From contig VXPH01000008.1 of the NCBI GenBank assembly GCA_009839615.1, forward strand, positions 10,949 to 74,948: a stretch of DNA of 64,000 nucleotides, written 5' to 3'. This stretch comes from Nitrospinota bacterium. Lineage in GTDB: Bacteria > UBA8248. Within the stretch, counting starts at the first letter, position 1. Each line of letters begins with the position of its first letter. Positions 1 to 17,806 of this stretch are shown piece after piece. The notes below the pieces were generated by a model, which worked only from the letters and a program-made list of their open reading frames with translations, was not told where the DNA came from and searched no databases. The position numbers were made by a program, and so were the translations under genes.

Positions 1-242
1 GGCGCCAGGACGAACACGATCCTGTCCGCCTTGTCGGGAACGATGTCTTCCTTCAAGAACAGCTTCAGCCCGTCCGCGATGGGCTGCAAGAGCCCGTGCC
101 AGCCCACGCGCATGGGTCCCAGGCGCAACTGGGCGTGGGCGATCACCTTCCGCTCGACGTAGATCATATACGCCACCACGAGCTGCACCACGTTGACCAC
201 GATGAATATCTTTATCGCGGCGACCGCGACTTCAAGCGCCAT
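1..242 (-). CDS. nuoH: NADH-quinone oxidoreductase subunit H, second copy (N-terminal part only; gene runs off window start)
   Basis: Reverse-complement translation from ATG at ~242-240 gives [81 protein letters not shown], matching the N-terminus of the NuoH at 9469-10449 ([25 protein letters not shown]). AAGGAG SD sits upstream. Not in the ORF track because no stop lies in the window. Confidence 0.8.
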
Positions 243-260
243 GTCCAACGAAGCTACTCC

Positions 261-1403
261 TTACCGATCACACTCGCCCAACACGATGTCGATGCTTCCG
301 ATGATGGCCACCACGTCCGCGACCAACTGCCCCACGCACAGCTTCTTGAGTCCGCCGAGGTTGATGAACGAGGGCGGACGGATGCGGACGCGGTAGGGCG
401 TCGTCGTCCCGTCGCTCACGATGTAGAAGCCGAACTCGCCCTTGGGGTTTTCGATGCTGTGGTATATCTCGCCCTCGGGCGGCTTGATGGTTCGCGGCGT
501 CTTGCAGCTCACCGGCCCGCCGGGAAGCTGCTCCAGGCACTGCTGGATGATATAGATGCTCTGGCGCAACTCCTCGATGCGCACCAGATAGCGATCGTAG
601 ATGTCGCCGTTCTCGCCGATGGGCACGACGAAATCGAGATAGGGGTACGCCGCGTAGGGCTTGGCGCGCCTCAGGTCCCATTTTACGCCGCTGCCCCGGA
701 TGATCGGCCCCGTGAGGCCCAAATCCATCGCGTCCTCGGCGGAGATGATGCCCACGTCGCGCGTTCGCTGCAGCCAGATGCGGTTGTTGGTGAGCAGCGT
801 CTCGTAGTCGTCGACCCGGCTCGGGAAAATGTCGGCGAACTCCTGCGTAAGCTGCAGGAACTTGTCCGGCACGTCCTCGTGCAGGCCGCCCAGGCGGAAG
901 GCGTTCACCGTCAGGCGGCCGCCGAACGCCGTCTCGAAGAGGTCGAGCACCATCTCGCGCTCTCTGAAGCACCACAGGAACACCGTCATCGCCCCGATGT
1001 CCAGGGCGTGCGTGGCGAGCCAGAGCAGATGGCTGGCGATGCGGGAGAGCTCCCCCACCATCGAGCGGATGTACTGCGCCCGCATGGGGATCTCCCAGTC
1101 GAAGAACTTCTCCACCGCCGTGACCCACGCGAGATTGTTCGAGGGCGCCGCGATGTAGTCGAGCCTGTCCGTATAGGGGATGAACATCGTGTAGTTGATG
1201 TTCTCGCCGATCTTCTCCGTGCCCCGGTGCAGGTAGCCGATGTCGCAGTCGAGATCGTTCACCGTCTCGCCGTCGAGCTTGAGGATGACCCTGAGTACCC
1301 CGTGCGTGCTCGGGTGCTGGGGGCCCATGTTGATGACGAGTTCTTCGGTCCCGTGCAGCGTGCTCTGCTGCTCGATACGGGACACATTCGCTACGCCGAC
1401 CAT
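261..1403 (-). CDS. nuoD: NADH-quinone oxidoreductase subunit D (49 kDa), second copy
   Basis: 380 aa; NMGPQHPSTHGVLR...C-terminal IVLGECDR hallmarks of NuoD. Paralog of 15004-16230. Confidence 0.92.
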   Translation of the reverse strand: MVGVANVSRIEQQSTLHGTEELVINMGPQHPSTHGVLRVILKLDGETVNDLDCDIGYLHRGTEKIGENINYTMFIPYTDRLDYIAAPSNNLAWVTAVEKFFDWEIPMRAQYIRSMVGELSRIASHLLWLATHALDIGAMTVFLWCFREREMVLDLFETAFGGRLTVNAFRLGGLHEDVPDKFLQLTQEFADIFPSRVDDYETLLTNNRIWLQRTRDVGIISAEDAMDLGLTGPIIRGSGVKWDLRRAKPYAAYPYLDFVVPIGENGDIYDRYLVRIEELRQSIYIIQQCLEQLPGGPVSCKTPRTIKPPEGEIYHSIENPKGEFGFYIVSDGTTTPYRVRIRPPSFINLGGLKKLCVGQLVADVVAIIGSIDIVLGECDR

Positions 1404-1431
1404 TTCCTCATTCCCTCAAAAATGCGCCGTT

Positions 1432-2034
1432 CTACTCGCCGATTTCCTTGCGCTTCGGCTTGGTGTAAATCCGCTCTCCCCTGCCCTCGAGCGGGTAGTC
1501 CTTCCGCATGGGATGGCTGCCCCAGTTGTCGGGCAGCAGTATCCGCCTGAGATCCGGATGACCTTCGAATTCAATGCCGAACAAATCGTATACCTCGCGC
1601 TCCATCCAGTCCGCGCTGGTCCATACCCCCGAAACCGTGGGCACGGCCCGGCCTTCCTTGATCCGCACCTTGAGACGAAGCCTGCGGTTATGCTCGAAGC
1701 TGTAGAGGTGGTAGAGCATCTCGAAGGGGTCTTCGGCTTCGGGGTAGTGCGCCGCCGTCAAATCGGTGAGGAGCTTGAAGAGCGCATCGCCGTGGTCGCG
1801 CAGATGCGTGCACACGGCGACGATGGAATCGACGTCCAGCACGAACGTCGCCTCGTCCTCATCGTCCTCATAGGCGCTCTGCTCGAGCACCGCGCCGGGA
1901 AACGCCGACTCCACCACCTCCTTCAAATCCTCGCCGGGCGGGGTCTTTACGGCTTCGGCGATCTCTTCGGCGGATTCTTCGGAATCCGGCGCGCCGTTCG
2001 TTTCTTCGCTGTTTTCCACCACTTCGTCGGGCAT
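1432..2034 (-). CDS. nuoC: NADH-quinone oxidoreductase subunit C (30 kDa), second copy
   Basis: 200 aa; acidic N-terminus then the 30-kDa subunit core (EHNRRLRLKVRI..GVWTSADWMEREVYDLFGIEFEGHPDLRRIL). Position between nuoB and nuoD. Confidence 0.88.
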   Translation of the reverse strand: MPDEVVENSEETNGAPDSEESAEEIAEAVKTPPGEDLKEVVESAFPGAVLEQSAYEDDEDEATFVLDVDSIVAVCTHLRDHGDALFKLLTDLTAAHYPEAEDPFEMLYHLYSFEHNRRLRLKVRIKEGRAVPTVSGVWTSADWMEREVYDLFGIEFEGHPDLRRILLPDNWGSHPMRKDYPLEGRGERIYTKPKRKEIGE

Positions 2035-2061
2035 CTTCTTCCCTTGTGCGCCGTATGGCTT

Positions 2062-2538
2062 TTATTTGCGGATGTATTTTTCCTGTTCAATCTTTTTCTG
2101 AAGCTGCATGACGCCCCACATCAAGGACTCGGGCCTGGGCGGGCAACCCGGAACGTAGACGTCCACCGGGATGATTTCATCCACTCCCTGCATCACCGCA
2201 TAGTTCGCATACGGGCCGCCGCAGGTGGCGCAGTTGCCCATCGCGATCACCCAGCGCGGCTCGGGCATCTGATCGTAGACCTTGCGAATCGCGTCCCCCA
2301 TCTTGTGGGTGACGGTGCCCGCCACGATGATCACGTCGGACTGGCGCGGCGTGGCGCGGAAAATCACGCCGAAGCGGTCGAAATCGTAACGCGCCGCGCC
2401 CGAGGCCATCATCTCGATAGCGCAACACGCCAGGCCGAAGGTCATCGGCCAGAGCGCGCTCTTCCTCGCCCAGGCGACCAGGCTGTCGACTTTCGACGTG
2501 ATGAAGTTGTCACTGAACTTGCCCTCGACTATGCCCAT
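2062..2538 (-). CDS. nuoB: NADH-quinone oxidoreductase subunit B (20 kDa, Fe-S N2), second copy
   Basis: LACCAIEMM...[10 protein letters not shown]...VPGCPPRPE cysteine motifs of NuoB. Start set at internal Met (MGIVEGKF) with AAGGAG SD, overlapping the nuoA stop by ~10 nt. The longer ORF 2062-2757 has no support for its extension. Confidence 0.88.
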
Positions 2539-2930
2539 TCCAACGCTCCTTTTCGCCAAGCGTAGAAATAACCCACCAACAGGATGGCGATGAACAGCAT
2601 CATCTCGATGAATCCGAACAGCCCGAGGGCGTCGTAGCGAACCGCCCAGGGGAAGAGGAACAAGGCCTCCACGTCGAACAGCAGGAACAGGATGCCCAGC
2701 AGGTAGAACCGGATGGAGAAACGCTCGTGCGCCTCCATGAGGGGGGGCATGCCGCACTCATAGGGGGAGTTCTTCTCGGGGTCCGGGTTGTTCGGGCGGA
2801 TGATGAGCGCGAAGATCAGAATGCTCGCGGCGAGCGCGGCCGCCATGAGCGTGATCAGGAATATGGGGATGTAGGGATTGATGACCTCATAATCCCTGAA
2901 AAATGCGCCGACAACCTCCATCGCATCCAT
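2529..2930 (-). CDS. nuoA: NADH-quinone oxidoreductase subunit A, second copy
   Basis: 133 aa, three TM helices, PYECG and [12 protein letters not shown] motifs. Confidence 0.88.
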
Positions 2931-3046
2931 GCGTGGCTCCCCGCCAAAAACCGCTAGGGGTTATGAAAAAGCGCCGCCCTCATCTTTGCCGCAAGGCGGT
3001 CGTTTCCCTCGAAAACCCCTGGAACAAAAGCCTGAAATCGAACGAA

Positions 3047-3070
3047 CCGCCATGACTTATATCATGGCGG
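3047..3070 (-). terminator. perfect 9-bp hairpin (CCGCCATGA-TATAAG-TCATGGCGG) in nuoN-nuoA spacer; candidate intrinsic terminator/processing site between the two nuo clusters
   Basis: Inverted repeat read directly. On the minus strand it is followed by UUCGUUCGAUUUCAG. It lies 25 nt downstream of the nuoN stop. Confidence 0.45.
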
Positions 3071-3094
3071 CAATCGAAAAACCAACCCCTGAGG

Positions 3095-4573
3095 TCAATT
3101 AAAAAAGACTGCGGAGCGATGGGCGAAATCGAGCACCGAGGAGGGGAAAATCCCCAGTTGCAGGGTGCTCGCGACGGCCAGCGTAAGCGCCGCGACCGCA
3201 TAGGACCAGCCCGGATGCGGAACGCTGCTCGCGGCCTCGCCCTGCGGTTCGCGCATGTACATCACCACGACGAGCCTAAGGTAATAATACACGGCCACCA
3301 CGCTGTTGAGCACCGCGATGACGGTCAGCCAGACGTAGCCGCCGTTCAGCGCCGCGCTGAAGACGTGGAATTTCGCCACGAAACCCCCGGTGGGCGGCAG
3401 GCCGGAGAGCGACACCATGAACACGGCCATCGCCGCCGCAAGACCGGGCCGGAAGGAGGCCAGGCCCGCGAGGTTGTCCAGCTTCGTGCCGCCGTCCTCG
3501 CGCATGTTCGAGATGAGGATGAGCACGCAGAAAGCGCCCATGTTCATGAACACGTAGACGAGCATGTAATACAGGAACCCGCTCGTGGCCAGTTCCGCGC
3601 TCGAGCGCGATGCCACGAGCGCGACCATGAGGTAGCCGGCGTGCGCGATGCTGGAATAGGCGAGCATGCGCTTCACGCAGGACTGCCAGATGGCGACGAG
3701 GTTCGCCAGGCTCATCGTGAGGACGGCCATCACCCACAAAACCGAATCGAAGCTCCCGCCCGCGTCGCCCGCGGAGAGAAAAACCCGGAAGAAAGCGGCG
3801 AAAGCCGCCGCCTTGGGGCCCACGGACATGAACGCCGTCACCGCGGTGGGCGCGCCCTCGTATACGTCCGGCGTCCACATGTAGAAAGGCGCCGCGGCCA
3901 CCTTGAAGCCCAGGCCGACCACCATGAAGCCCAGACCCATCAGGAAGGCCGCCCCGCGCGAGGCGGGATTCTCGTGAAGCCGCGTCGCTATCTCGATCAG
4001 GTCGACCGAGCCGGTCGCGCCATAGACGAGCGCCATGCCGTAGAGCAGAAAGCCCGAGGCGAACGAACCGAGCAGAAAGTATTTCAAAGACGCCTCGTTG
4101 CCCTCGGGCCGCGCGCGCAGGTAACCCGCCAGGACGTAGAGCGACAGGGAGAACACTTCCAGACCCACGAATATCATCAGCAGGTTCCGCGTCGCCGCCA
4201 TGAGCATCATACCGGAGGTGGCGAAGAGGATGAGGCCGAAGTATTCGCCCGCCGGCGTATCGTCCAGCTCCCGCTGGGCCGCGGCGATGAGCACCGAGAA
4301 TATGCTCGCGAACAGGATGACGACGTAGAGAAACTGCGTGAACCCGTCGAAGAGGTACATGCCGCCGAACGAGGCGGCCAGGCCCGGCAGCGCGCGCGCG
4401 CCGAGCGTCACGCCCAGGGCGGCAGCCAGCGTCACCAGCGTGATGATGACGATGACGGAGCGCTCCCCTTTGGCGAGAAAAGCGTCCCACATCAACACCA
4501 GCACCGCCCCGCAGACCGGCAGGATCACCGGCAGCAGGTATCCCCAGTGGATCGTGGGATGAACGATATCCAA
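3095..4573 (-). CDS. nuoN: NADH-quinone oxidoreductase subunit N
   Basis: 492 aa polytopic antiporter-like subunit, last gene of the 14-gene cluster. Confidence 0.9.
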   Translation of the reverse strand: MDIVHPTIHWGYLLPVILPVCGAVLVLMWDAFLAKGERSVIVIITLVTLAAALGVTLGARALPGLAASFGGMYLFDGFTQFLYVVILFASIFSVLIAAAQRELDDTPAGEYFGLILFATSGMMLMAATRNLLMIFVGLEVFSLSLYVLAGYLRARPEGNEASLKYFLLGSFASGFLLYGMALVYGATGSVDLIEIATRLHENPASRGAAFLMGLGFMVVGLGFKVAAAPFYMWTPDVYEGAPTAVTAFMSVGPKAAAFAAFFRVFLSAGDAGGSFDSVLWVMAVLTMSLANLVAIWQSCVKRMLAYSSIAHAGYLMVALVASRSSAELATSGFLYYMLVYVFMNMGAFCVLILISNMREDGGTKLDNLAGLASFRPGLAAAMAVFMVSLSGLPPTGGFVAKFHVFSAALNGGYVWLTVIAVLNSVVAVYYYLRLVVVMYMREPQGEAASSVPHPGWSYAVAALTLAVASTLQLGIFPSSVLDFAHRSAVFFN

Positions 4574-4575: not shown

Positions 4576-6129
4576 CTATTTCACCTCGACTCTTTGCGCA
4601 TAAGCGAGCACGTTCTTTTGTATTTCAGGCGCAGGCGCTTTCTCCACGCGCAGCACCCGCCGGTTCACCTGCGAGAGCCAGGCCTTGGCCGAAGGCTCGA
4701 TCCGCTCGAACAACGGTTTGGGATACAGCCCGATCCAGAACATCAGGGCCACCATGGGCAGCATGACGAGCCACTCGCGCCTGTTCATGTCGGCAAGCCC
4801 CAGGTTCGCCCGCACGCTCACCTCGCCGAACAGGACGCGCTGCAGCATCCAGAGCATGTAGACCGCCGAGAGAACCACGCCGGTGGCCGCGATGGCCGCG
4901 AACCAGGCGTTGCGCTCGAACGCGCCCAGGAGAATCGTGAACTCGCCCACGAACCCGTTCAGCCCCGGAAGGCCGATGCTGCTGAGCGCGGTGATGATGA
5001 AAAACGTCGAAAATACCGGCATCACCCGGAGCAGGCCGCCGAATTCCTCGATCTGCCTCGTGTGCCGCCTCGAATAGATGAAGCCCACGATCAGGAAGAG
5101 CGCCCCGCTGCTGATGCCGTGATTCACCATCTGGATGACGCTCCCCGAAGCGCCCAGGAGATTGAAGGAGAAAAGCCCCAGCATCACGAAGCCCAAGTGA
5201 CTCACCGAGGAGTAGGCCACGAGCTTTTTCACGTCGGTCTGCACCATCGCCATGAGCGCGCCGTAGATGATCCCCACAAGCGCCAGGCATATGATGAGGA
5301 ACGCGAACTCGCGCGCGGCTGTGGGGAACAGCGGCATCGCCAGCCTCATGAAGCCATACGTGCCCATCTTCAGGAGGACGCCGGCGAGGATGACGCTTCC
5401 CGCCGTGGGCGCTTCCACGTGGGCGTCGGGCAGCCAGGTGTGAAACGGGAAAATCGGCACCTTGATGGCGAAGGAGATGGCGAACGCGGCGAACAGCCAC
5501 GGCTGGAGGCCGGCGTCCACGGGTTCTCTGAAATGCGCCAGGATGTCGAACGTGCCGACCCCGCTCGCGAAATACAGCCAGATGATCGCCACGAGCATCA
5601 GTACGCTTCCGGCCATGGTATAGAGGAAGAACTTTACCGCCGCGTAAATCCGCCTGCCCCCGCCCCAGACCCCGATGATGAGGTACATCGGAATCAGCAT
5701 TCCTTCCCAGAAGACATAGAACAGGAAGAAATCGAGCGCGAAGAACACGCCGAGCATCCCCGTCTCCAGGAACAGCAGGGACATGTAGTAGAGCCGCGTC
5801 TTTTTCCGCACGTCCTCGAAAGAGAAGAGGATCGCGACGGGCGTCAGGATGGTGGTCAGCATCACGAGCAGCAGGCTGATTCCGTCCACGCCCACCTTGT
5901 AGGAAATCCCGAACCTCGGTATCCAGGCCGCCTCCTCGACGAACTGCATGCCCGCATAATCGGGCCGGAAGCCCAGGTACATCACGGCCGAGAGGACAAA
6001 CGTGACGAGGGACACCACCAGCGCGAACGCGCGAACGCCGCTGTCTTTCCCCTCGCCCTCCCGCGCGAACAGGAGCAGCAGGCCCCCGATCATGGGCAAA
6101 AACAATATCGAGGTGATTATTCCAGGCAC
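4576..6129 (-). CDS. nuoM: NADH-quinone oxidoreductase subunit M
   Basis: 517 aa antiporter-like subunit; position between nuoL and nuoN. Confidence 0.9.
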   Translation of the reverse strand: MPGIITSILFLPMIGGLLLLFAREGEGKDSGVRAFALVVSLVTFVLSAVMYLGFRPDYAGMQFVEEAAWIPRFGISYKVGVDGISLLLVMLTTILTPVAILFSFEDVRKKTRLYYMSLLFLETGMLGVFFALDFFLFYVFWEGMLIPMYLIIGVWGGGRRIYAAVKFFLYTMAGSVLMLVAIIWLYFASGVGTFDILAHFREPVDAGLQPWLFAAFAISFAIKVPIFPFHTWLPDAHVEAPTAGSVILAGVLLKMGTYGFMRLAMPLFPTAAREFAFLIICLALVGIIYGALMAMVQTDVKKLVAYSSVSHLGFVMLGLFSFNLLGASGSVIQMVNHGISSGALFLIVGFIYSRRHTRQIEEFGGLLRVMPVFSTFFIITALSSIGLPGLNGFVGEFTILLGAFERNAWFAAIAATGVVLSAVYMLWMLQRVLFGEVSVRANLGLADMNRREWLVMLPMVALMFWIGLYPKPLFERIEPSAKAWLSQVNRRVLRVEKAPAPEIQKNVLAYAQRVEVK

Positions 6130-6165: not shown

Positions 6166-8070
6166 TCAGCGCGCGGTGAGATACAGCAGAATCACCAGCG
6201 CGCCGACCAGCATCGAAACGGCGTAGCTCTTCACGTAGCCCGTCTGGAGACGTCTCAGGACGCCCCCCAGGGAGCTGACGAAAAAGCCCGCGCCGTTCAC
6301 GGCCGCATCCACCAGACCGTCCTCGAATGCTCTCCAGCACCAAATCGACGCCCGCTTCACCGGTTGAACGATGCAGGCGTCATATATCTCGTCCACGTAA
6401 TACTTGTTCACCAGGAGCCGGTGGACTCCCGGCCAGAGCTCCGCGTACGCGCTGCCGCCGTCGTCTTTCAGCACATAGAGATTGTAGGCCGCATAAATGC
6501 CGATGAAGGCGATAGCGAGCGAGAACACCATCATCAGTATCTCCAACACCACCTCATGGTGCGCCTCGGCGTGACCGCCGAAAACGGGCGCCAGGAAATC
6601 GCCGAAAACGTTCGCGCCCGTGATGATGGGAATCCCCACCCAGCCGCCGACGATGGAGAGCGCCGCCAGCACCTGAAGCGGGAGCGTCATGTTTGTGGGG
6701 GATTCATGGACTTTCTGCTGCTCCTCCAGGCTCAGGTTGCAGGCGCCGAAGAACACGCGGAACAAGAGCCTGAACATGTAGAACGCCGTCATCAACGCGC
6801 CTGCTGCACCCGCGAGCCACAGGAGCACCCCGCCGCGCTCGGCGGTCATGGCCGAGTAGAGAATGGCGTCCTTGCTGAAAAAGCCGGCGAAGGGGAATAC
6901 GCCCGCGATGGCCAGCGCGCCGATCACGAAGGTGTTGCTCGTTCGCGGAAGGGCCGCCTGGAGCCCGCCCATCCTGCGGATGTCCTGCTCGCCGTCCAGG
7001 GCGTGAATCACGCTACCAGCGCCCAGGAACAGGAGCGCCTTGAAGAACGCATGGGTCATCAGATGGAAGATCGCCGCGGAGAACGCCCCCACGCCGCAGG
7101 CGAGAAACATATAGCCGAGTTGGCTCACCGTGCTGTAGGCGAGCACTTTCTTGATGTCGGTCTGCACCAGGGCGATGGACGCGGCCATCAACAGCGTGAG
7201 CGCCCCGACGACGGCCACCACCAGCATCGCCGTGGCTGAAAGTTCAAAGAGCACGTACGTTCTCGCCACCATGTAGACGCCCGCGGTCACCATGGTGGCC
7301 GCGTGTATCAGGGCGCTGACCGGGGTGGGGCCTTCCATCGCGTCGGGCAGCCAGACGTAAAGCGGAATCTGCGCGCTCTTGCCCGTGGCGCCCGCGAATA
7401 GCAGCAGGCAGATGATCGTCGCCGCCGTGCTCTCGGGACTGAGCAGCCCAGGCGCCTTCGAGAACACCTCCGAGAAATCCAGCGAGCCGACGACGCTGTA
7501 GATGTAGAAAAGCGCGATCAGGAAGCAGAAATCACCCACCCGGTTCACGATGAAGGCCTTCTTGCCGGCTTCGGCCGCCGCCTTGCGCTCGTACCAGAAG
7601 CCGATGAGCAGGTAGCTGCAAAGACCCACCGCTTCCCAGCCCACGAACATGACCACGAAGTTATCGCCCAGAACGAGCGTGAGCATCGAGAGCGAGAAGA
7701 GGTTCAGATAGATGAAATAGCGCACCACGCCGCGGTCGTCGTGCATGTAGCCCATCGAGTAGAGGTGGATCAGCGTCCCGACGCCGGTGACGACGAGCGC
7801 CATGACGGCCGAGAGCGGGTCCAGCGAGAAACTCGCATTGACCTCGAAGGCGCCCACGGGAATCCACTCGAACAACACGACACGGATGAGCCGCCCGTTC
7901 TCGGGCATCGCCAGAAGGCGAAGCCAGCCCGCGAGAGACGCCGCGAACGCGAGCGCCATCGCCAGCGTCGCGGCCCAGCCGGCGAACTTCTCCCCGCGCT
8001 TCCAGCCGAAGAGCAGGTTCACCAGCACGCCGATGAGGGGGAACAGCAATATGAGAGTCAAACTATCCAT
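6166..8070 (-). CDS. nuoL: NADH-quinone oxidoreductase subunit L
   Basis: 634 aa; antiporter-like subunit with long C-terminal extension typical of NuoL. Confidence 0.9.
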   Translation of the reverse strand: MDSLTLILLFPLIGVLVNLLFGWKRGEKFAGWAATLAMALAFAASLAGWLRLLAMPENGRLIRVVLFEWIPVGAFEVNASFSLDPLSAVMALVVTGVGTLIHLYSMGYMHDDRGVVRYFIYLNLFSLSMLTLVLGDNFVVMFVGWEAVGLCSYLLIGFWYERKAAAEAGKKAFIVNRVGDFCFLIALFYIYSVVGSLDFSEVFSKAPGLLSPESTAATIICLLLFAGATGKSAQIPLYVWLPDAMEGPTPVSALIHAATMVTAGVYMVARTYVLFELSATAMLVVAVVGALTLLMAASIALVQTDIKKVLAYSTVSQLGYMFLACGVGAFSAAIFHLMTHAFFKALLFLGAGSVIHALDGEQDIRRMGGLQAALPRTSNTFVIGALAIAGVFPFAGFFSKDAILYSAMTAERGGVLLWLAGAAGALMTAFYMFRLLFRVFFGACNLSLEEQQKVHESPTNMTLPLQVLAALSIVGGWVGIPIITGANVFGDFLAPVFGGHAEAHHEVVLEILMMVFSLAIAFIGIYAAYNLYVLKDDGGSAYAELWPGVHRLLVNKYYVDEIYDACIVQPVKRASIWCWRAFEDGLVDAAVNGAGFFVSSLGGVLRRLQTGYVKSYAVSMLVGALVILLYLTAR

Positions 8071-8082: not shown

Positions 8083-8385
8083 CTATAGCTTCAGCAGGTT
8101 GATCTCGTCGAGATCCGTGGATTCGCGGTTTCTGTAGATCAGCACCACGATGGCCAGCCCGATGGCGGCCTCCGCCGCGGCCACCGCCATCACGAAAAAC
8201 ACGATCATCTGGCCCGCCATCGAATCGAGGAAGCGGCCATAGGCCACGAACGCCAGGTTCGCCCCGTTCATCATCAACTCGATGCACAAGATGACGACGA
8301 TGGCGTTTCTGCGCACCACGACGCCCACGACGCCCAGGGAGAAGAGAACCGCACTCAATATCAGATAATGCTCGAGCGGCGCCAC
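8083..8385 (-). CDS. nuoK: NADH-quinone oxidoreductase subunit K
   Basis: 100 aa, three TM helices; position and size. Confidence 0.88.
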
Positions 8386-9468: not shown

Positions 9469-10449
9469 CTAGCCGATGAAAACGACGGCGGCGGCCGTGA
9501 GTATCACGTTCACGATGGACAGCGGCAGAAGCACCTTCCATCCAAAACCCATCAGTTGGTCATAGCGCAGGCGCGGCGTGGAGGCGCGCAGCCACATGAA
9601 GAAGAACATGAACGCCAACACCTTGATCAGGAACCACAGGACGGGCGGCAGCAGCGGCCCGCGCCATCCGCCGAGGAAAAAAGTCGCCCCCACCGCCGAG
9701 AGCGTAATCATGCTGCAGTACTCGGCGATGGAGTAAACCGCAAAGTGCATGCTGCTGTACTCGGTATGAAAACCGCCCGTGAGTTCGCTCTCGGCCTCGG
9801 GCAAATCGAAGGGCGCACGGTTCGTCTCCGCCAGCATGCAGATGACGAACAGCAGAAAGCCCAGGGGCTGCAAGACGATGTAGGGCATCCCGGCCTGGCC
9901 CTCGACGATTCCCTTTAAGCTCAGGGTGCCCGAGATCATGACCACGCCCAGAAGCGACATGCCGAGCGAGAGTTCGTAGCTGATGAGCTGGGCCGCGGAG
10001 CGAAGGCCGCCGATGAGCGGATACTTGCTGTTCGAAGCCCATGAGCCGAGCACGATGCCGTACACGCCGATGCCCGCCATGGCGAAGATGTAGAGGATGC
10101 CGACGTTCACGTCGGCCAGCACCAGGTCCACCTTCTGGCCGAGCACGGTCACGGAATCGCCGAAAGGCACCACGGCGAAAGCGGCCAGCGCCGGAATGAG
10201 CGTGACGGCGGGTGCTAAAACGTAAATCACCTTGTCCGCCTGAGCGGGGATGATGGTTTCCTTGAACATGAGCTTGATCCCGTCCGCGATGGGCTGCAAA
10301 AGCCCCGAAGGACCCACGCGGTTGGGGCCTACGCGCACCTGTACGAGCGCGAACACGCGCCGCTCCATCCAGGTCATGTAGGCGGCGAGCAGCAAAAGCC
10401 CGCCGAAGCCCACGAGCACTTTCCCGAGTATGATGAGCAGCGTAACCAT
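9469..10449 (-). CDS. nuoH: NADH-quinone oxidoreductase subunit H
   Basis: 326 aa, 8 TM helices, [22 protein letters not shown] motif. Confidence 0.92.
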
Positions 10450-13047
10450 CTATGCGCCCACCTCCTGGGGCTTCTCCGCCTTGCGGACCTGGATCTCCAC
10501 GCCCTGGCGGCCCGGCGCGCCGCCGGTGTTCAGCGCCGATCCCCCGTGTGCGCGCAAACAGCCCTCCGGCGCGAAGGCGACGCCCACGGGCGCGTTCTTG
10601 TCGACATGCGCGGGAAGCCGCACGAGAACGCCTGCCACTTCGAATTCCATGAGTTCACCGTCCACAACTCCCAGACTCCCTGCATCGCTCGGCGAGAGGG
10701 CGAGCGCGGCTTCGGGCATGTCGGCCAGATGATGGGCCGACCCCGCATAAGCTCCCGAGAGCCACAAGACGGGCGTCAGCAGCATCCTCAAGCCCGGCGC
10801 CTGCGCTTCTTTCTCCGGAATCTGCGCGATCTGGTAGGCGCGCCGCCCTTCTCTCTTGAGATGCAGACCCTCGTCGGGAATACGGCCGAAGGCGTCCGCA
10901 TAATCGCCGACCAGCGAGCGCGCCTGAATCCGGATTTTGTCCAGCGCGTTCGCCCGCATGGGCCGCTCCATCGCCTTGGCGATATCGGCGAAGGCCCGCC
11001 ATGCTTCGGGGACCATCTTGTCGATCATCGGCTTGAGCGCGCGCGGGAGAGACTGCGCCCTGCGCTCCAGGTTCGTGACGCTGCCCGCCTCCTCATACAG
11101 CGTGGGCGCGGGGATCACGACGTCCGCGTATTCTGCGCTCGCGTTCAGGTGAGAAGTCTGCAGGACGACGAATTCGGCTTTCTCCAGCGCTTCTCTCGCC
11201 CGCGCGCCGTCGGGATGCTCAGCCACCGGGTCGCAGCCCAGAACGTAAAGCCCTTTCAGTTCACCGCTCCCGAGACCATCGAGTATGCCTCTTGCATCTC
11301 TGCCGGCTTGCGCGCCGGGCGCCCTTCCCCACGCCTCCGCGCAGGCGGCTCGCGCGGCCTCATCCGACAAATCGCCGCCGGGCAGGGATTCGGGGTGCAA
11401 GCCCATGTCGATTGCGCCTTGTAAGTTCGGCGCGCCGGCCGCGAAGAGCATGTTGGCGCGGAGCAGGAGCCCCAGGTTGATAGCCTCCGATACGGCGACC
11501 TTCCCGGTCTCCCCGGGGCCTGAGAGTATGCTCACGGGGCCGTCCGCCGCCAGGGTCGCCCGGGCGGCGGTCATGATGTCATCAGACGGCACATCGGCCT
11601 CTTCGCACAGGCGGTTCAAGTCCACGGAACCCAGGAGTGCGGCGTAGTCTTCCGCGTTCTCCCCTTCGGGTTTCGCGCCGCCGTCCGCGAGGCATATCGC
11701 CAGCGCGCGCAGCGTCCGCGAGATGCCGCCCAGCACCGGCACCAGATGATGCACCCGGCTCTGAACGCGCAAGTCGATGCGCCTTTGGTTCACGTTGACG
11801 ACCACCGCGCCCGCCCGGTGCGCTTTTCTGATCTGAAGCGCGAGTATGGGGTGCTGCGTGAACGGGTCGCTGCCCACGATGATGACGGCCTTCGAACGCC
11901 CCAACGCCTCGATGGAGCCCGCACCGCCTACGCCGTCCAGGGCGGCGCGCTGTAAGTCCGTCTGCACGATGTCGCGCGGATGAATCCGGCTATCCACGTG
12001 GTTGGTTCCCAGAACCGAGCGCATGAAGGCGCCGAACTGATAGGCGGTTTCGTTCGTGGAATGGGCTCCGCCCAGGCCGGCGATTGCGCCGCCGCCCGCT
12101 TCCTCGATAATTGAGCCCAAGCCCCGCTCCGCCTCGCCGATAGCCTCCGCCCAGCCGACTGGCGTCAGCTCGCCGTCTTTTCGGATCATCGGCTGGGTGA
12201 TGCGCCCCTCGCCGTGCGCTCCGCTCCAGCCAAAGCGCGCGACGTCGCAAATCCAGGTGTCGTTGACTTTTTCGTTCTCCGCCGCCGTGACGCGCTTGAT
12301 CTCGCCGTCCTTCGTCCAGACGCCCTGGCGGCAGCCCACGCTGCACAGCGTGCAGGGACCTTGCGTTTCCTGCATCTCCCAGACGCGGGCGGTGAAGCGG
12401 TATTTGTTGTCCGTGAGCGCGCCGACGGGGCAGATGTCGATGACGTTGCCGGAAACGATGCTCGTGAGCGGGAGGTCTTCGTAGATGCCCACCTCGGTCT
12501 TGTCGCCCCGCTGCGCCCAGCCGAACTCCGCCCCGCCGTCGATCTCCTCGGTGAAGCGGATGCACCGGGTGCAGTGCACGCAGCGGTTCATCTCCGGCTT
12601 GATGAAGGGGCTCATCTCCTTGGGCGGATAAATGCGCCGGAACTCGTGCGTCCTACTGATCGCCTTGCCGTAGGCCATGGTCTGATCCTGCAGGGGGCAT
12701 TCGCCGCCCTGGTCGCACACCGGGCAATCGAGCGGGTGGTTCTTGAGCAGGAACTCGAACACCCCCTCCTGGGCCTCGATGACGCGCGGGGTCACGGAGC
12801 TGATTACCATGCCCTCGGCCGCATACGTGGCGCAGGAGGGCTGGAGCTTGGGTATCGGCCTGCCGTTTCCGGCGTCGAGCACCTCGACGAGACAGGCCCG
12901 GCACTGGCCCACGATGGAGAGGTTCTTGTGGTAGCAGAAATGCGGAACGTGCGCGCCGATGCGGAGCGCGGCCTCCAGCACGGGCAGACTCTTGTCCATC
13001 GTGATGCTCTGGTCGTTGAATACGAAGGTTACCTGCTCATTCGACAT
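10450..13047 (-). CDS. nuoG: NADH-quinone oxidoreductase subunit G (75 kDa, molybdopterin-like)
   Basis: 865 aa. N-terminal 2Fe-2S and 4Fe-4S Cys clusters (CYHKNLSIVGQCRACLVEV; CPVCDQGGEC; CVHCTRCIRF), then a molybdopterin oxidoreductase-like domain. Confidence 0.92.
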   Translation of the reverse strand: MSNEQVTFVFNDQSITMDKSLPVLEAALRIGAHVPHFCYHKNLSIVGQCRACLVEVLDAGNGRPIPKLQPSCATYAAEGMVISSVTPRVIEAQEGVFEFLLKNHPLDCPVCDQGGECPLQDQTMAYGKAISRTHEFRRIYPPKEMSPFIKPEMNRCVHCTRCIRFTEEIDGGAEFGWAQRGDKTEVGIYEDLPLTSIVSGNVIDICPVGALTDNKYRFTARVWEMQETQGPCTLCSVGCRQGVWTKDGEIKRVTAAENEKVNDTWICDVARFGWSGAHGEGRITQPMIRKDGELTPVGWAEAIGEAERGLGSIIEEAGGGAIAGLGGAHSTNETAYQFGAFMRSVLGTNHVDSRIHPRDIVQTDLQRAALDGVGGAGSIEALGRSKAVIIVGSDPFTQHPILALQIRKAHRAGAVVVNVNQRRIDLRVQSRVHHLVPVLGGISRTLRALAICLADGGAKPEGENAEDYAALLGSVDLNRLCEEADVPSDDIMTAARATLAADGPVSILSGPGETGKVAVSEAINLGLLLRANMLFAAGAPNLQGAIDMGLHPESLPGGDLSDEAARAACAEAWGRAPGAQAGRDARGILDGLGSGELKGLYVLGCDPVAEHPDGARAREALEKAEFVVLQTSHLNASAEYADVVIPAPTLYEEAGSVTNLERRAQSLPRALKPMIDKMVPEAWRAFADIAKAMERPMRANALDKIRIQARSLVGDYADAFGRIPDEGLHLKREGRRAYQIAQIPEKEAQAPGLRMLLTPVLWLSGAYAGSAHHLADMPEAALALSPSDAGSLGVVDGELMEFEVAGVLVRLPAHVDKNAPVGVAFAPEGCLRAHGGSALNTGGAPGRQGVEIQVRKAEKPQEVGA

Positions 13048-13064
13048 CTATCGCCTCTCCCCCA

Positions 13065-14369
13065 TCACATCGCGGCGGGATACGGGCTGCCCAGCGGACA
13101 GCGCCCCAGAGAGATGTGCGCTTCGAACTCATCGTAAAACTTCGTCAGGAACGCGCCGAACATCATGGCGCACGCATCAGAGAGCACGCAGATGGTGTTG
13201 CCACGCATGTTGGGGTCTATCGACGCGAGCGTCTCCAGATCGTCGGGCACCCCCTCGCCCCGCTCGATGCGCGCCAGAATCTCGGACACCCAGCCGGTTC
13301 CCTCACGGCAGACCGAGCACTGACCGCAGGATTCGTGCTCGAAAAAGGCGGCGAGCCTGCCCGCGGCCTGCACCATGCACGTGGTCTCGTCCATGACGAT
13401 GACCCCGCCGCTGCCGCCCATGCTGCCCGCCTTCGCGAGGGAATCGAAATCCATCTTCACCTTGTCTTCATATACTTCCTTCGCGGTGAGGGCGGGCGCG
13501 CTCGCGCCGCCGGGAATCACCGCCTTGAGCGCCGCGCCGTTCCGCATGCCGCCGCAGTGCTCGTGAATCATCTCCTCGCACGTGAGGCCGAGCGGCAGTT
13601 CATACAGGCCCGGCTTCGCCACGTGGCCCGAGACGCAGTACATGCGGGTGCCGGAGTTTTTCTCGTCAATCCCGATGCCGGCGAACCACTCCGCCCCCTT
13701 GTTCACGATGTGGGGGAGATTCGCGAGCGTCTCCACGTTGTTGATGACCGTGGGCCGCGCATAGAGGCCGATGACCGCCGGGAACGGCGGCTTGAGTCGC
13801 GGATGCCCGCGCTTGCCCTCGAGCGACTCCAGAAGCCCGGTCTCCTCGCCGCAGATGTAGGCGCCTGCGCCGCGGTGGGTATAGATATCGCACGAAAATC
13901 CGCTGCCCATGATGTTCCGGCCGACGTAGCCCTTCTCATAAGCCTCGGCCAGTGCCTTTTCCACCGCGCGCCAGGGGGCGACGAACTCGCCGCGAATGTA
14001 GATGTAGGCCTTCTCGATGCCCACGGCGTAACACGCGATGAGGATGCCCTCGATGAGCTGGTGCGGGTCACGCAGCATGAGTTCGCGATCCTTGAACGTG
14101 CCAGGCTCTCCCTCATCCGCGTTCACGGCCAGGTATTTCGGCCCGTCCACCTGGGGCACGAAGCTCCACTTGAGGCCGCACGGGAAACCCGCGCCGCCGC
14201 GCCCGCGCAGGCCCGAGGACTTCACCATTTCGATGACGTCGGCAGGTTCGACGCCGCCCAGGAGCCCCCGGATCGCCTCATAGCCGCCCGTGGCCTCATA
14301 ACCTGCGATATGAAGCGCATCGGGATTATCGAACCGGCCCGTCACGATTTTCTCTAACACCAACGCCAT
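13065..14369 (-). CDS. nuoF: NADH-quinone oxidoreductase subunit F (51 kDa, FMN/NADH-binding)
   Basis: 434 aa; GAGAYICGEETGLLESLEG FMN motif and C-terminal CGQCSVCREG 4Fe-4S motif. Confidence 0.93.
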   Translation of the reverse strand: MALVLEKIVTGRFDNPDALHIAGYEATGGYEAIRGLLGGVEPADVIEMVKSSGLRGRGGAGFPCGLKWSFVPQVDGPKYLAVNADEGEPGTFKDRELMLRDPHQLIEGILIACYAVGIEKAYIYIRGEFVAPWRAVEKALAEAYEKGYVGRNIMGSGFSCDIYTHRGAGAYICGEETGLLESLEGKRGHPRLKPPFPAVIGLYARPTVINNVETLANLPHIVNKGAEWFAGIGIDEKNSGTRMYCVSGHVAKPGLYELPLGLTCEEMIHEHCGGMRNGAALKAVIPGGASAPALTAKEVYEDKVKMDFDSLAKAGSMGGSGGVIVMDETTCMVQAAGRLAAFFEHESCGQCSVCREGTGWVSEILARIERGEGVPDDLETLASIDPNMRGNTICVLSDACAMMFGAFLTKFYDEFEAHISLGRCPLGSPYPAAM

Positions 14370-14379
14370 TTTGAGGTCC

Positions 14380-14979
14380 TCAGCCCTGGCCTTTGCCGTC
14401 TGTTTCTTCGGCGCCTGCCAGAGCGGGCGATACCACCTCGTCCGCCCCGATGGGCGAGACGGCCTCGCCCTTTTCCAACGCGCCGAAGATATCGTTCATG
14501 ATCTCGGGCGTGACGCACTCGAAGTAGTGTTCGTTCACCTGCACGCAGGGAGCGCCCCCGCAGGCGCCCAGGCACTCGACCGCCTCTATGGAGAACTTCC
14601 CGTCCTCGCGCGTATGGCCGACGCGGCAGTCCAGGCGGTTTTCGATATCGCGCAGCAGCCTGCCCGCTCCCATAAGGGCGCACGAGAGGTTGTTGCACAC
14701 CTGTACGTGGTATTCCCCGATGGGCTGGGTCTTGAGCATGGTGTAGAAGCTCACCACGCCCCATACCTCCATGGGAGAGACCTCGAAGATCTCGGCCACA
14801 TGCTGCATCACCGCGCTGGTGATGAAGCCCTCCTGCTCCTGGGCCAGTTGAAGCGCGGGGATCAGGGCCGAGCGCTTCACCGGATATTTGGCGATGATGC
14901 GCTCTAATTCCGCGCGGTTCTCGGGCGTGAACTCGAAGCGCTCTTCCTGCCCGGAATGGGGAAACCGTATCAACGCCAA
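14380..14979 (-). CDS. nuoE: NADH-quinone oxidoreductase subunit E (24 kDa, 2Fe-2S)
   Basis: 199 aa; thioredoxin-like 2Fe-2S motifs (VCNNLSCALMG...CLGACGGAPC). Confidence 0.92.
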   Translation of the reverse strand: MALIRFPHSGQEERFEFTPENRAELERIIAKYPVKRSALIPALQLAQEQEGFITSAVMQHVAEIFEVSPMEVWGVVSFYTMLKTQPIGEYHVQVCNNLSCALMGAGRLLRDIENRLDCRVGHTREDGKFSIEAVECLGACGGAPCVQVNEHYFECVTPEIMNDIFGALEKGEAVSPIGADEVVSPALAGAEETDGKGQG

Positions 14980-15003
14980 AACAATACCACCCTCTATTTC
15001 ACC

Positions 15004-16230
15004 CTAGCGATCTATCTCGCCCAACACGATGTCGATGCTGCCGATGGCGGCCACGACGTCGCCCATCAGCCCGCCCCGGGTGATCTCGCCGAGCGCGTGG
15101 AGGTTCGCGAAACTCGGCGCGCGCACCTTTACCTTGTAAGGGTCCGGGCTGCCGTCGCTGATCATGTAAAAGCCAAGCTCCCCCCGGGGGGACTCGATGG
15201 CCTGGTACACCTCGCCCTCGGGCACGCTGTAGCCTTCGGTGAAAATCTTGAAGTGGTGGATCAGCGCCTCCATGTCGTGGGCCAGCTGCTCCTTGGGCGG
15301 CGGCACCACCTTGGGGTTGTCCGCCATGAGCGGCCCCTCGGGCATTCCCTCGAGCACCTGCATGGCGATGCGCCGGGACTCGCGCATCTCGGCAACCCGC
15401 ACCAGATACCTGTCCAGAATGTCGCCCCGCTCGCCCACGGGGACCTCGAAGTTGAACTCCTCATAGCCCGAGTAGGGCTCGTTCTTGCGGATGTCGTAGG
15501 GTACGCCGCAGGCCCGGAGCAGCGGCCCCGTGATGCCGAGCGCATAGGCCTGCTCGGCCGTCATGGCGCAAACGCCCTCCGCGCGCCTCAGGTAGATGGG
15601 GTTGTTCGTGAGCAGTTCCTCATACTCGTCCACGCGATCCGAGAAGGGTTCCAGAAACGCCCGGCAATCCTCGTAAAACTCCGGATACGGCTCGCGCGCG
15701 ACGCCGCCCACGCGGAAATAGCTCGTCATCATGCGCACGCCCGAGACTTTCTCGAAAATCTTCAGGAGCTGCTCGCGCTCTCTGAAGCAATAGAGAAAGA
15801 CCGTCATCGCGCCCAGATCGAGCGCGTGGGTGCCGAGCCAGACCAGGTGGCTGTTCAGGCGCGTCATCTCCGCGAGCAGCACCCGCAGATACCTACACCG
15901 CCTGGGAACCTCCATATCCAGGAGTTTCTCGACCGCCAGAACGAAGCCGAGGTTGTTCGACATGGGCGCCAGGTAATCCATGCGGTCGGTCATGGGGAGG
16001 GCCTTGTTGTAGGTTTTCTCCTCCATGTTCTTCTCGATGCCGGTGTGCAGGTAGCCGATGACGGGCTTGCACGAGAGCACCGTCTCGCCGTCGAGTTCGA
16101 GCACCACGCGCAGAACCCCGTGGGTGCTCGGGTGCTGCGGCCCCATGTTGAGCGTCATGGTCTCGGTCTGGATGGGACCGAGCATGTCGCTGTCGAGGGG
16201 GTCCGTCTGCCGGGTTTGCGTGGCCATCAA
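15004..16230 (-). CDS. nuoD: NADH-quinone oxidoreductase subunit D (49 kDa)
   Basis: 408 aa; NMGPQHPSTHGVLR...IVLGEIDR. Confidence 0.93.
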   Translation of the reverse strand: MMATQTRQTDPLDSDMLGPIQTETMTLNMGPQHPSTHGVLRVVLELDGETVLSCKPVIGYLHTGIEKNMEEKTYNKALPMTDRMDYLAPMSNNLGFVLAVEKLLDMEVPRRCRYLRVLLAEMTRLNSHLVWLGTHALDLGAMTVFLYCFREREQLLKIFEKVSGVRMMTSYFRVGGVAREPYPEFYEDCRAFLEPFSDRVDEYEELLTNNPIYLRRAEGVCAMTAEQAYALGITGPLLRACGVPYDIRKNEPYSGYEEFNFEVPVGERGDILDRYLVRVAEMRESRRIAMQVLEGMPEGPLMADNPKVVPPPKEQLAHDMEALIHHFKIFTEGYSVPEGEVYQAIESPRGELGFYMISDGSPDPYKVKVRAPSFANLHALGEITRGGLMGDVVAAIGSIDIVLGEIDR

Positions 16231-16245
16231 AGGCTCCTGTGATCC

Positions 16246-16806
16246 TTATTCCGCCGCCCTGGGCTTGCCCGCGGGGGTATCCCGGAAGGTGAACGCCACG
16301 GGTTCTGCGGAGATGTCGAAATCCTTGCGGTGGGGATGCCCCTCGAACCCCTCGGGCGTGAGGATGCGCTCGAGTTCGGGATGTCCCTCGAAGGTGATCC
16401 CCAGAAGGTCGTACGCCTCGCTCTCATGGAGCCTCGCGCCCGGCCATACCCCGCAGACGCTGGGCATCGCCGGTTCGAGATCGTCCGCGCAGGGGGCCTC
16501 GAGCCGCAGACGCTGCGATTTCTCAGGATTCAGGAGCGAATACGTCACCTTGAACCGGTAGGAAACCGGCAGTTCCAGACAATCCACCCCGCAGACGAAG
16601 CTCAGCAGCTTGTAGCCCCTCTCGTCACGCAGAAACCGCGCCGCATCGAGCAGGGCGGCCGGCGCGATTTGCGCGGAAATCTGGCCGCGATGCTCGCGCG
16701 CCCCGAGAAAACCCTCCCCGATTTTCGCCTGAAGCAAAACGAGGTCGGGGTCTTTGTTCTCGACCGGCTCTTCGGCCTCCGTCTGCTCCCGCTCCTCTTC
16801 GCTCAA
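16246..16806 (-). CDS. nuoC: NADH-quinone oxidoreductase subunit C (30 kDa)
   Basis: 186 aa; paralog of 1432-2034; position. Confidence 0.88.
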   Translation of the reverse strand: MSEEEREQTEAEEPVENKDPDLVLLQAKIGEGFLGAREHRGQISAQIAPAALLDAARFLRDERGYKLLSFVCGVDCLELPVSYRFKVTYSLLNPEKSQRLRLEAPCADDLEPAMPSVCGVWPGARLHESEAYDLLGITFEGHPELERILTPEGFEGHPHRKDFDISAEPVAFTFRDTPAGKPRAAE

Positions 16807-16913
16807 CGGCCCAATCCCTCATTTCTCAAAGGTTTGTATCGCACGAGAAAGCGCTCACCCCGCCCCTGCTCTGACTTTCAACTCACGTGGCGTGGGGAGC
16901 CTTCTCACATCAT

Positions 16914-17411
16914 CTAAAGCGAGGTGACGCCGGAATCCTCTCGGTAGAGCGTTTCATCCGCAATCTTCGCCTGGAGCTTCATGATCCCGTCGATGAGCGT
17001 TTCGGGACGCGGCGGACAGCCCGGCACGTAGATATCGACGGGCACGACCTCGTCCACGCCCTGCACGAGCGCGTAGTTGTTGAATATCCCGCCCGTGGAT
17101 GCGCACGCGCCCATGGAAATCACCCATTTCGGCTCGGGCATCTGATCGTATATCTGCCGGAGCACGGGCGCCATCTTGCGCGACACCCGGCCCGCCACGA
17201 TCATCAAGTCCGCCTGGCGCGGCGACGCGCGGAACACCTCGGCGCCGAAGCGCGAGATGTCGTATTTCGCCGCCGAGGTCGACATCATCTCGATGGCGCA
17301 GCACGCCAGGCCGAAAAGCGCCGGCCACAGGCTGTTCTTACGCGCCCACTTGATGACGTCGGTCGCGCGGCCCAGCACCACCTGGCCTTCGAGTTGTTGT
17401 TCTAGTCCCAT
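16914..17411 (-). CDS. nuoB: NADH-quinone oxidoreductase subunit B (20 kDa)
   Basis: [28 protein letters not shown] motifs. Start placed at internal Met (MGLEQQLEG), overlapping the nuoA stop by ~10 nt, the same arrangement as in the second cluster. The upstream 73-aa extension in ORF 16914-17630 is Arg-rich and unsupported. Confidence 0.88.
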
Positions 17412-17806
17412 TCGAGCGCTCCCCGGCGCCACTCGTATATCAGGCTGGCCACGAGCAGAGCCATGAAAGGCAGAACCGCGAGAAACGCGTATACGCCCAT
17501 GCTCTTGAGGTTCACCGCCCACGGATACAGGAAGATGAGCTCCACGTCGAAGACAATGAACAGTATCGCCACCAGAAAGAATTTCACGCTGAAACGCCCG
17601 CGCGCGTTCGATTCGGGCACGATGCCGCACTCATAGGCGAAGTCCTTCTCCACCGTGGACTTGCGCCTGCCCAGCAGGAACGTCACGCCCAGGTTCACGA
17701 CGGCGAACCCGACCGCCAGCGCTATCAGAATCAATATGGGCAAATACTCTTCCGGCATTTCCCGCCCCCACGGCGCTTGAATACGCACCTTTTTCTCATG
17801 CCACAT
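17402..17806 (-). CDS. nuoA: NADH-quinone oxidoreductase subunit A
   Basis: 134 aa, PYECG and [12 protein letters not shown] motifs. An alternative start 16 codons downstream (MPEEYLPIL) is possible. Confidence 0.88.

Follow-up and report, generated by a model that had tools for sequence, protein, structure and literature searches.

Complex I is usually viewed as a unit of co-adapted subunits that is inherited and assembled as a whole. Its subunit NuoI carries the clusters N6a and N6b and, in those relatives that work without an NADH module (Ndh, Ech and Fpo), offers the site on which the electron donor docks. Genomes with two nuo sets, sets without nuoEFG and operons without nuoI are already known, each separately. 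Among the sets without nuoEFG are the 11-subunit nuoABCDHIJKLMN enzymes of Bacillota and others, for example Desulfitobacterium hafniense (PMC11238625; Moparthi and Hagerhall 2011, PMC3144371), NuoI being the entry point of the quinone-reducing module, or Q-module (PMC11238625). Operons without nuoI have been described in peatland Acidobacteria, where they read nuoACDHJKLMN (Hausmann et al. 2018, PMC6018796); the supplementary table S2b of that study lists nuoB and nuoI individually, as genes located on scaffolds other than that of the operon, so that an unlinked nuoI is a documented solution in a related acidobacterial lineage. Two sets per genome, named NUO-1 and NUO-2, occur in Nitrospina gracilis and other Nitrospinia (PMC3578206, PMC10839748). 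The locus considered here lies in a stretch of 64,000 nucleotides from a Nitrospinota bacterium of the candidate phylum UBA8248 (contig VXPH01000008.1, positions 10,949 to 74,948; below, "the window" is this whole stretch), where a complete 14-gene nuo operon (set 1) is directly followed on the minus strand by a second, anciently diverged set of ten genes (set 2) without nuoE, nuoF, nuoG and nuoI.

Two respiratory enzymes are thus encoded at this locus. That of set 1 is an NADH:quinone oxidoreductase of the canonical type. Set 2 has the genes of an entire membrane arm (A, H, J, K, L, M, N) and of a quinone-reducing NuoB/C/D module, and is probably a second complex I-type proton pump that works without an NADH module and has its NuoI supplied in trans.

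Gene content of the two sets

A preliminary description of this DNA, made from the letters of the window, had listed 14 contiguous minus-strand nuo genes from 17806 to 3095, followed by a second nuoA, nuoB, nuoC, nuoD and the start of nuoH. The listing of open reading frames (ORFs) and Pfam agree with it: in set 1, nuoA to nuoN stand in order and each ORF matches the expected family (Table 1), the NADH- and FMN-binding NuoF being present together with NuoE and NuoG, and the five genes of set 2 that fall in the window are likewise confirmed by Pfam. The two sets are also paralogous, as had been stated. Their proteins are 39% (A), 56% (B), 47% (C), 50% (D) and 60% (H) identical, and the nuoA/nuoB overlap, put at about 10 nt in the preliminary description, is exactly 10 nt in both (ATGGGACTAG at 17411-17402 and ATGGGCATAG at 2538-2529). 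Identities of 39-60% mark the sets as old paralogues rather than as the outcome of a recent duplication.

The window breaks off within nuoH2, and the remainder of set 2 was read from a public metagenome contig (L001) that was found via the exact NuoD2 protein and matches the window without a single difference in 11,403 overlapping nt; two further megabase-size contigs with the same NuoD2 differ from the window at about 0.7% of positions. On L001, the rest of nuoH2 and nuoJ2-K2-L2-M2-N2 occupy positions 11162-18122 (gene calls; NCBIfam NuoH, J, K, L, M and N). The full set 2 reads A B C D H J K L M N. As had been described, nuoD2 runs straight into nuoH2, with a gap of 18 nt and nothing of E, F or G between them, and the gap from nuoH2 to nuoJ2 is 19 nt. 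Gene calls and tblastn found no nuoE, nuoF or nuoG within set 2 or in the 3 kb past nuoN2, so the extended contig holds no nuoEFG relocated behind nuoH2. Of the continuation nuoIJKLMN, whose presence beyond position 1 had been raised as a question, J, K, L, M and N were found and nuoI is absent; the set is thus one of ten genes, with nuoI missing between H2 and J2, and not the 11-subunit set that had been suggested.

The Fe-S motif CxxCxxCxxxC is absent from all six frames of the set-2 region, which disposes of two candidates for a concealed NuoI, a cryptic Fe-S domain fused to a set-2 subunit and a small ORF between H2 and J2. None of the set-2 proteins has a Cys-rich extension that could compensate. 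In six-frame motif scans and tblastn, nuoI1 is the sole 2x[4Fe-4S] ORF with this motif in the 64-kb window, in the 7-kb extension and in all loci of the clade described below.

An alternative electron-input module attached to set 2, a further suggestion of the preliminary description, was not found either: past nuoN2 lie convergent, unrelated genes (hydantoinase B and an aminotransferase), which differ between relatives, and no fpoF/fqo-like, ferredoxin or formate dehydrogenase genes are attached to the set. The adjacency of the two sets had been thought to make the question of the donor addressable; since there is no attached input module, the locus alone does not do so.

Distribution in candidate phylum UBA8248

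Relatives of NuoD2 that are at least 76% identical to it carry the NCBI labels Nitrospinota or Candidatus Tectomicrobia and come from metagenome-assembled genomes (MAGs), one of which, GCA_016192135.1, belongs to candidate phylum UBA8248 in GTDB (PMC10839748, supplementary table). Twelve distinct members of this clade were compared, originating from groundwater, soil and marine samples and including a TARA scaffold, with 76% as the lowest NuoD2 identity. nuoH2 is directly followed by nuoJ2 in all twelve, and nuoN1 stands immediately ahead of nuoA2 in every locus that reaches that far, the most divergent one (L094) starting within nuoA2. The tandem 14+10 arrangement is fixed in a clade of UBA8248 and, being common to its members, indicates that the loss of nuoI2 and the tandem linkage predate the clade. 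The synteny downstream of nuoN2, on the other hand, is not conserved, and relatives have a HAD hydrolase and an AIR synthase there.

Having both types of set side by side had been called unusual. The arrangement is indeed uncommon, but not unique, as it is a trait of the whole clade and two adjacent nuo sets are also found in a deltaproteobacterial locus (L070). A further tandem case was considered in two loci from NC10 (Methylomirabilales) MAGs (L061 and L085), where ATP synthase a- and c-like genes separate a reduced nuoACDHJKLMN set from a second nuoA, whose product is 53% identical to NuoA1 and at which the loci end; it was rejected, as the ATP synthase-like genes intervene before the next nuoA.

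Relationship to other nuo clusters

Gene order was mapped by tblastn on about 150 loci from genome and metagenome scans; a profile scan of genome contigs with the NuoD2 alignment gave at least 80 comparison loci, with very general patterns and with the clade itself not among them. Clusters that contain nuoEFG mostly read A to N. The orders A B C D H I J K L M N, C D H I J K L M N and A C D H J K L M N are seen in many loci of Acidobacteriota, Chloroflexota, NC10 and Verrucomicrobiota; in Terriglobia, among them the cultured Acidipila rosea, the order is A C D E F G H J K L M. No Fe-S motif was found in the gap of 87 direct nuoH-nuoJ junctions. The combination of nuoB present and nuoI absent is seen in 17 of 17 clade loci and, among the loci mapped, only in this clade.

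A separate observation concerns the Terriglobia pattern with nuoEFG, which is represented by A. rosea DSM 103428 (L087; NZ_SMGK01000002.1, 9049-21132) and about 11 other loci. Its A-C gap of 132 nt and H-J gap of 91 nt are too small for nuoB and nuoI, so this cultured aerobe encodes both small Fe-S subunits of its NADH-dependent complex I off-operon.

In a neighbour-joining tree, NuoD1 groups with NuoD proteins from nuoEFG-containing clusters, and the NuoD2 clade stands beside a large nuoEFG-less lineage made up mostly of Acidobacteriota, Chloroflexota and NC10. The two are also told apart by an insertion of 26 columns (PKEQLAHDMEALIHHFKIFTEGYSV in NuoD1), which is present in 35 of 35 NuoD proteins encoded beside nuoEFG, missing from 33 of 36 NuoD of clusters without nuoEFG, and missing from NuoD2. 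Tree position and missing insertion together place set 2 with enzymes that work without an NADH module.

By protein family, set 2 is Nuo. Every one of its proteins is so called by NCBIfam, the Nuo models being the best matches, with NuoB, D, H, K, L, M and N above the curated cut-offs (NuoB2 scores 253 bits against a cut-off of 116, NuoD2 510 against 459 with TIGR01962). An Ndh or Fpo identity was rejected on the scores of NdhH (396 against a cut-off of 583), FpoD (370 against 600), FpoH (293 against 475) and FpoL (466 against 1050), and a hydrogenase or Mrp identity because those models score far below their cut-offs, the CxxC pairs are lacking and a B/C/D module is present. On the earlier question of whether the second cluster groups with Ndh/Fpo-like complexes, NuoD2 stands beside a nuoEFG-less lineage and the protein families are those of Nuo.

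The same comparison bears on a hybrid enzyme, in which the quinone module and membrane arm of set 2 would assemble with NuoI1 and with NuoE, NuoF and NuoG of set 1, the cell thus having two isoforms of NADH:quinone oxidoreductase, set apart by their direction or by the way in which they handle quinone or ions. The subunits that set 2 does without (E, F, G and I) are those carrying electrons from NADH to N6b, and each is encoded once in set 1 upstream; NuoB2 and NuoD2 are very canonical, and the tandem linkage is conserved in relatives even though the downstream synteny is broken. The insertion shared by all NuoD proteins encoded beside nuoEFG is nevertheless lacking in NuoD2, which would argue against set 2 simply docking the NuoEFG of set 1, and NuoD2 has its place next to the nuoEFG-less lineage. 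Such a hybrid is therefore considered rather improbable.

Functional constraint on set 2

Measured against relatives at about 82% protein identity, the set-2 genes show ratios of nonsynonymous to synonymous substitution rates (dN/dS) of 0.05-0.25, and dN of B, D, L and M is below that of their set-1 counterparts. The ORFs are all intact, and the inactivating lesions that the preliminary description had considered are not found in them.

The conserved core of the subunits was followed in alignments of 39-80 homologues each for A, B, D, H, J, K, L and M, and of only 14 usable ones for N. Of the columns conserved to at least 95%, set 2 keeps all in B (39/39), D (83/83), H (56/56), J (9/9), K (14/14), L (110/110) and M (73/73), as well as 11/12 in A and 54/58 in N. 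All four cysteines of cluster N2 are present in NuoB2 (CC, GNC and PGC), whose best PDB matches are mitochondrial PSST. NuoD2 has the quinone-site residues H30, H34, R80, Y83 and D135, invariant in 80 homologues; H34, Y83 and D135 are taken here to be H38, Y87 and D139 of Thermus thermophilus Nqo4. It reads DCDIGYLH and GECDR, and the NiFe CxxC motifs are absent. Two cysteines near the former NiFe site, C53 and C378, were examined and set aside, as they vary within the clade.

Two other cysteines of NuoD2, Cys289 and Cys300, lie on either side of the point where NuoD has its deletion (residues 289-300, L001:10865-10900, about 504-539 of the window). Both are invariant in 14 of 14 clade sequences, and position 300 is Cys in 0 of 80 other NuoD homologues. 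The marine relative (L098, a TARA_B100000686 scaffold) offers another observation: its NuoB2, NuoD2 and NuoM2 are 97%, 88% and 83% identical to those of the window, and its NuoN1, NuoL1 and NuoM1 only 53%, 60% and 66%, set 1 having diverged much further than set 2. This slower evolution suggests that set 2 may be at least as important to the cell as set 1.

The possibility that set 2 is a decaying or non-functional duplicate, or an artefact of a recent tandem duplication, has in its favour the incomplete gene content, with E, F, G and I missing. It is hard to reconcile with intact ORFs under low dN/dS that evolve more slowly than set 1, with the retention of the near-invariant residues (all of them in B, D, H, J, K, L and M), with paralogues so dissimilar that the duplication must be ancient, and with the same arrangement in independent assemblies from groundwater, soil and marine samples. 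These data effectively refute it, and it is regarded as extremely improbable. Judged in the same way, set 2 is intact, strongly constrained and, by prediction, catalytically canonical; the selection on it, together with the N2 ligands, quinone-site residues and conserved columns that it has kept, argues that it would encode a working quinone-reactive, proton-pumping machine rather than a remnant.

The spacer between the two sets

Between nuoN1 and nuoA2 the preliminary description had noted a spacer of 164 nt with a perfect 9-bp hairpin. Both are there (Table 1), and RNAfold lengthens the stem to 11 pairs, including two G-U pairs. The hairpin is kept in near-identical strains and in a relative at 95%, and is absent from more distant relatives. 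Possible roles for it are those of a local operator or of a weak read-through terminator. A role as a conserved terminator was rejected because of its absence from distant relatives and its weak U-tract.

What is conserved in the spacer is a promoter-like element, and the hairpin loop is its -10 hexamer TATAAG. This extended -10, TGATATAAG, has TG at 3064-3063 and TATAAG at 3061-3056. In the alignment of relatives, the block TTGG(T/A)T, 17-18 nt, TGnTATA(A/G)n recurs 10-25 nt past the nuoN1 stop in spacers that have otherwise diverged. Of 10 clade spacers, 9 contain the strict pattern TTGnnn-N14-16-TGnTATAnn, which has a single occurrence in the 64-kb window when both strands are counted. A simple scanner for consensus promoters and terminators gave no match in the spacer. 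From this conservation we infer that set 2 has a putative promoter of its own, with a 5' untranslated region of about 119 nt. With its own conserved element, set 2 would not simply be co-expressed with set 1, which is a further point against the hybrid NADH-dependent enzyme.

Source of NuoI and electron donor

To our knowledge, every characterised member of the complex I superfamily with a NuoB/NuoD module feeds N2 through a NuoI-type 2x[4Fe-4S] subunit; N6a and N6b of NuoI are the only route to N2 that we know of, and NuoI is a universal part of the complex I electron path. With the feed of N2 as universal as this, the enzyme of set 2 would almost certainly receive its NuoI in trans.

Two sources can be envisaged. 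An unlinked orphan nuoI elsewhere in the genome, for which the acidobacterial operons offer a precedent, may be the origin of the subunit, a plausible proposal that is nonetheless short of probable. NuoI1, whose gene lies 6 kb upstream of nuoA2 and points the same way, is a possible source too, though a doubtful one; it is suggested by the conserved linkage, by the retention of nuoB2 and by the very canonical NuoB2 and NuoD2. That subunits are seldom mixed between complex I clades (Spero et al. 2015, PMC4453560) weighs against NuoI1 as the source and equally against the hybrid that would also take up NuoEFG. Set 2 borrowing the single NuoI, possibly even the whole NADH module, of the neighbouring operon is put forward as a tentative idea; if true, one Fe-S wire would serve two interchangeable quinone-reducing and proton-pumping modules.

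An enzyme of ten subunits that genuinely lacks NuoI would instead have the N2 cluster of NuoB2 reduced directly by a soluble or peripheral donor docking at the NuoI site. The loss is old and stable, as none of the 12 relatives has an operon nuoI; there are no other 2x[4Fe-4S] genes within about 70 kb; and nuoB2 has been kept in the operon, unlike in all other nuoI-lacking clusters mapped. Against such an enzyme stand the absence of a compensating Cys-rich extension in the set-2 proteins and the orphan nuoI genes documented in relatives (PMC6018796), and the reading is thought quite unlikely. The set-2 proteins, moreover, belong to a group of NuoB/NuoD relatives (Nuo, Ndh, Fpo, Ech, Mbh, Mbx/Mbs and Hyc/Hyf) of which we know of no characterised member without a NuoI homologue.

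Several points weigh against the preferred reading of a second proton pump that obtains NuoI in trans. In the about 70 kb around the locus that the scans for nuoI cover, there is no second copy of the gene. In 49 of 49 nuoI-less clusters outside the clade in which the status of nuoB could be judged, nuoB is absent as well, and for an operon that keeps nuoB but not nuoI there is no orphan precedent on record. The NuoI of the neighbouring nuoEFG-less lineage is only 27-36% identical to NuoI1, so that it is uncertain whether NuoI1 would fit set 2. Neither the 64-kb window nor the region downstream of nuoN2 contains genes for ferredoxin, PFOR, a hydrogenase or another donor. Finally, the argument for a promoter of set 2 is drawn solely from conservation.

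In the proposed pump, with NuoI in place, single electrons from a donor other than NADH would reduce quinone and drive the pumping of protons, or the enzyme would operate in reverse. The donor would most likely be reduced ferredoxin or a similar carrier that docks on NuoI.

Organization of the locus and the rest of the window

Table 1. Features of the tandem nuo locus, in window positions.
Feature	Position	Strand	Remarks
nuoA1	17402..17806	-	first gene of set 1; Pfam Oxidored_q4, E=2e-34
nuoB1	16914..17411	-	Pfam Oxidored_q6; ATG at 17411, 10-nt overlap with nuoA1
nuoC1	16246..16806	-	Pfam Complex1_30kDa
nuoD1	15004..16230	-	Pfam Complex1_49kDa, E=8e-116; long form, 26-column insertion PKEQLAHDMEALIHHFKIFTEGYSV
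nuoE	14380..14979	-	Pfam 2Fe-2S_thioredx
nuoF	13065..14369	-	Pfam Complex1_51K, SLBB, NADH_4Fe-4S; NADH- and FMN-binding subunit
nuoG	10450..13047	-	Pfam Fer2_4, NADH-G_4Fe-4S_3, Fer4_Nqo3, Molybdopterin
nuoH1	9469..10449	-	Pfam NADHdh, E=8e-125
nuoI1	8962..9441	-	Pfam Fer4 families; canonical NuoI, best PDB match T. thermophilus Nqo9, E=7e-46
nuoJ1	8398..8916	-	Pfam Oxidored_q3
nuoK1	8083..8385	-	Pfam Oxidored_q2
nuoL1	6166..8070	-	Pfam Proton_antipo_N, _M, _C
nuoM1	4576..6129	-	Pfam Proton_antipo_M; public gene call on L001 begins at 6093
nuoN1	3095..4573	-	Pfam Proton_antipo_M; last gene of set 1
nuoN1-nuoA2 spacer	2931..3094	-	164 nt, read from sequence; folding z = -2.5 against shuffles
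promoter-like element for set 2	3056..3085	-	-35 TTGGTT 3085-3080, 18-nt gap, extended -10 TGATATAAG
perfect 9-bp inverted repeat	3047..3070	-	CCGCCATGA-TATAAG-TCATGGCGG; arms 3070-3062 and 3055-3047
nuoA2	2529..2930	-	first gene of set 2; Pfam Oxidored_q4, E=2e-39
nuoB2	2062..2538	-	Pfam Oxidored_q6; 10-nt overlap with nuoA2
nuoC2	1432..2034	-	Pfam Complex1_30kDa; acidic N-terminal extension of about 60 residues
nuoD2	261..1403	-	380 aa, short form; NCBIfam TIGR01962 NuoD
nuoH2, 5' end	1..242	-	80 codons; Pfam NADHdh; gene runs on past window position 1

In the remainder of the 64-kb window, ORFs were chosen by their GC content at third codon positions (GC3) and then compared with Pfam; Rfam and tRNA scans of the window gave no matches. 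A protein of 254 aa (27251-28015, minus strand) has a strong match to the nitrile hydratase alpha chain (239 bits) and a weak one to Frankia_peptide, and sits among three Amidohydro_2 paralogues (20429-21904, 28426-29442 and 29529-30545). An ORF of 167 aa (24828-25331, plus strand) matches only the C-terminal third of the selenoprotein B of glycine/sarcosine/betaine reductase (GRDB), and may represent either a gene fragment or one portion of a selenoprotein gene that an in-frame UGA divides. Two minus-strand ORFs of 490 aa (38202-39674) and 532 aa (47756-49354) have coding-like GC3 and no Pfam match at E <= 1e-5. The product of 30672-31901 (minus strand) contains three CycH Ig-like repeats related to cytochrome c biogenesis, and that of 50696-52111 (plus strand) is a FIST sensor-domain protein, neither with an obvious link to the nuo genes.

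Significance

A conserved operon without nuoI directly behind a complete operon with nuoI constitutes a natural test of whether an Fe-S subunit of complex I can be exchanged or dispensed with. With set 2, the little-known uncultured phylum UBA8248 joins the organisms with complex I-type enzymes that lack the NADH module. The practical value is limited, the organism being uncultured, the locus silent on the donor and an unlinked nuoI already known in Acidobacteria.

Comparison with known systems

The literature searched held no prior description of a compact, nuoB-keeping set of ten genes that lacks nuoI as its sole missing Q-module gene and is fixed behind a full operon. The different known systems resemble it in different respects. 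With the 11-subunit enzymes of Bacillota and others, set 2 shares the absence of nuoEFG, the canonical Q-module and membrane arm, the short NuoD and the lack of an operon-attached donor gene. It differs from them in also lacking nuoI and in its position directly behind a complete 14-gene operon; the Q-module encoded in the operon is therefore incomplete, with NuoB, NuoC and NuoD present and nuoI absent, and the membrane arm (A, H, J, K, L, M and N) is kept.

Cyanobacterial and chloroplast NDH-1 and archaeal Fpo are, like set 2, relatives of complex I without the NADH module, and in NDH-1 the electrons are given by ferredoxin at the NuoI homologue. These enzymes keep NdhI or FpoI, whereas set 2 is without nuoI and scores as Nuo, and neither NdhS/O/V-like nor FpoF/O-like genes were found near it.

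The Nitrospinia resemble UBA8248 in having two complex I sets per genome, and for the second of these (NUO-2) a donor or acceptor different from NADH has been proposed (PMC3578206, PMC10839748). The genes of Nitrospina NUO-2 are scattered, nuoI is kept, and NuoE, NuoF and NuoG are modified and carry extra Fe-S clusters (PMC3578206), whereas the genes of set 2 stand together in a single compact operon that has no E, F, G or I.

The acidobacterial operons nuoACDHJKLMN and nuoACDEFGHJKLMN (PMC6018796; about 49 loci here, including that of A. rosea) share with set 2 a nuoH directly followed by nuoJ, and with the organism the presence of several nuo sets per genome, their Fe-S subunits being supplied from elsewhere in the genome. 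The NuoD of those without nuoEFG falls beside NuoD2, while that of the nuoEFG-containing ones, such as A. rosea, groups with NuoD1. They also lack nuoB, which the UBA8248 clade keeps overlapping nuoA2, and, unlike set 2, these reduced clusters were not found adjoining a full set.

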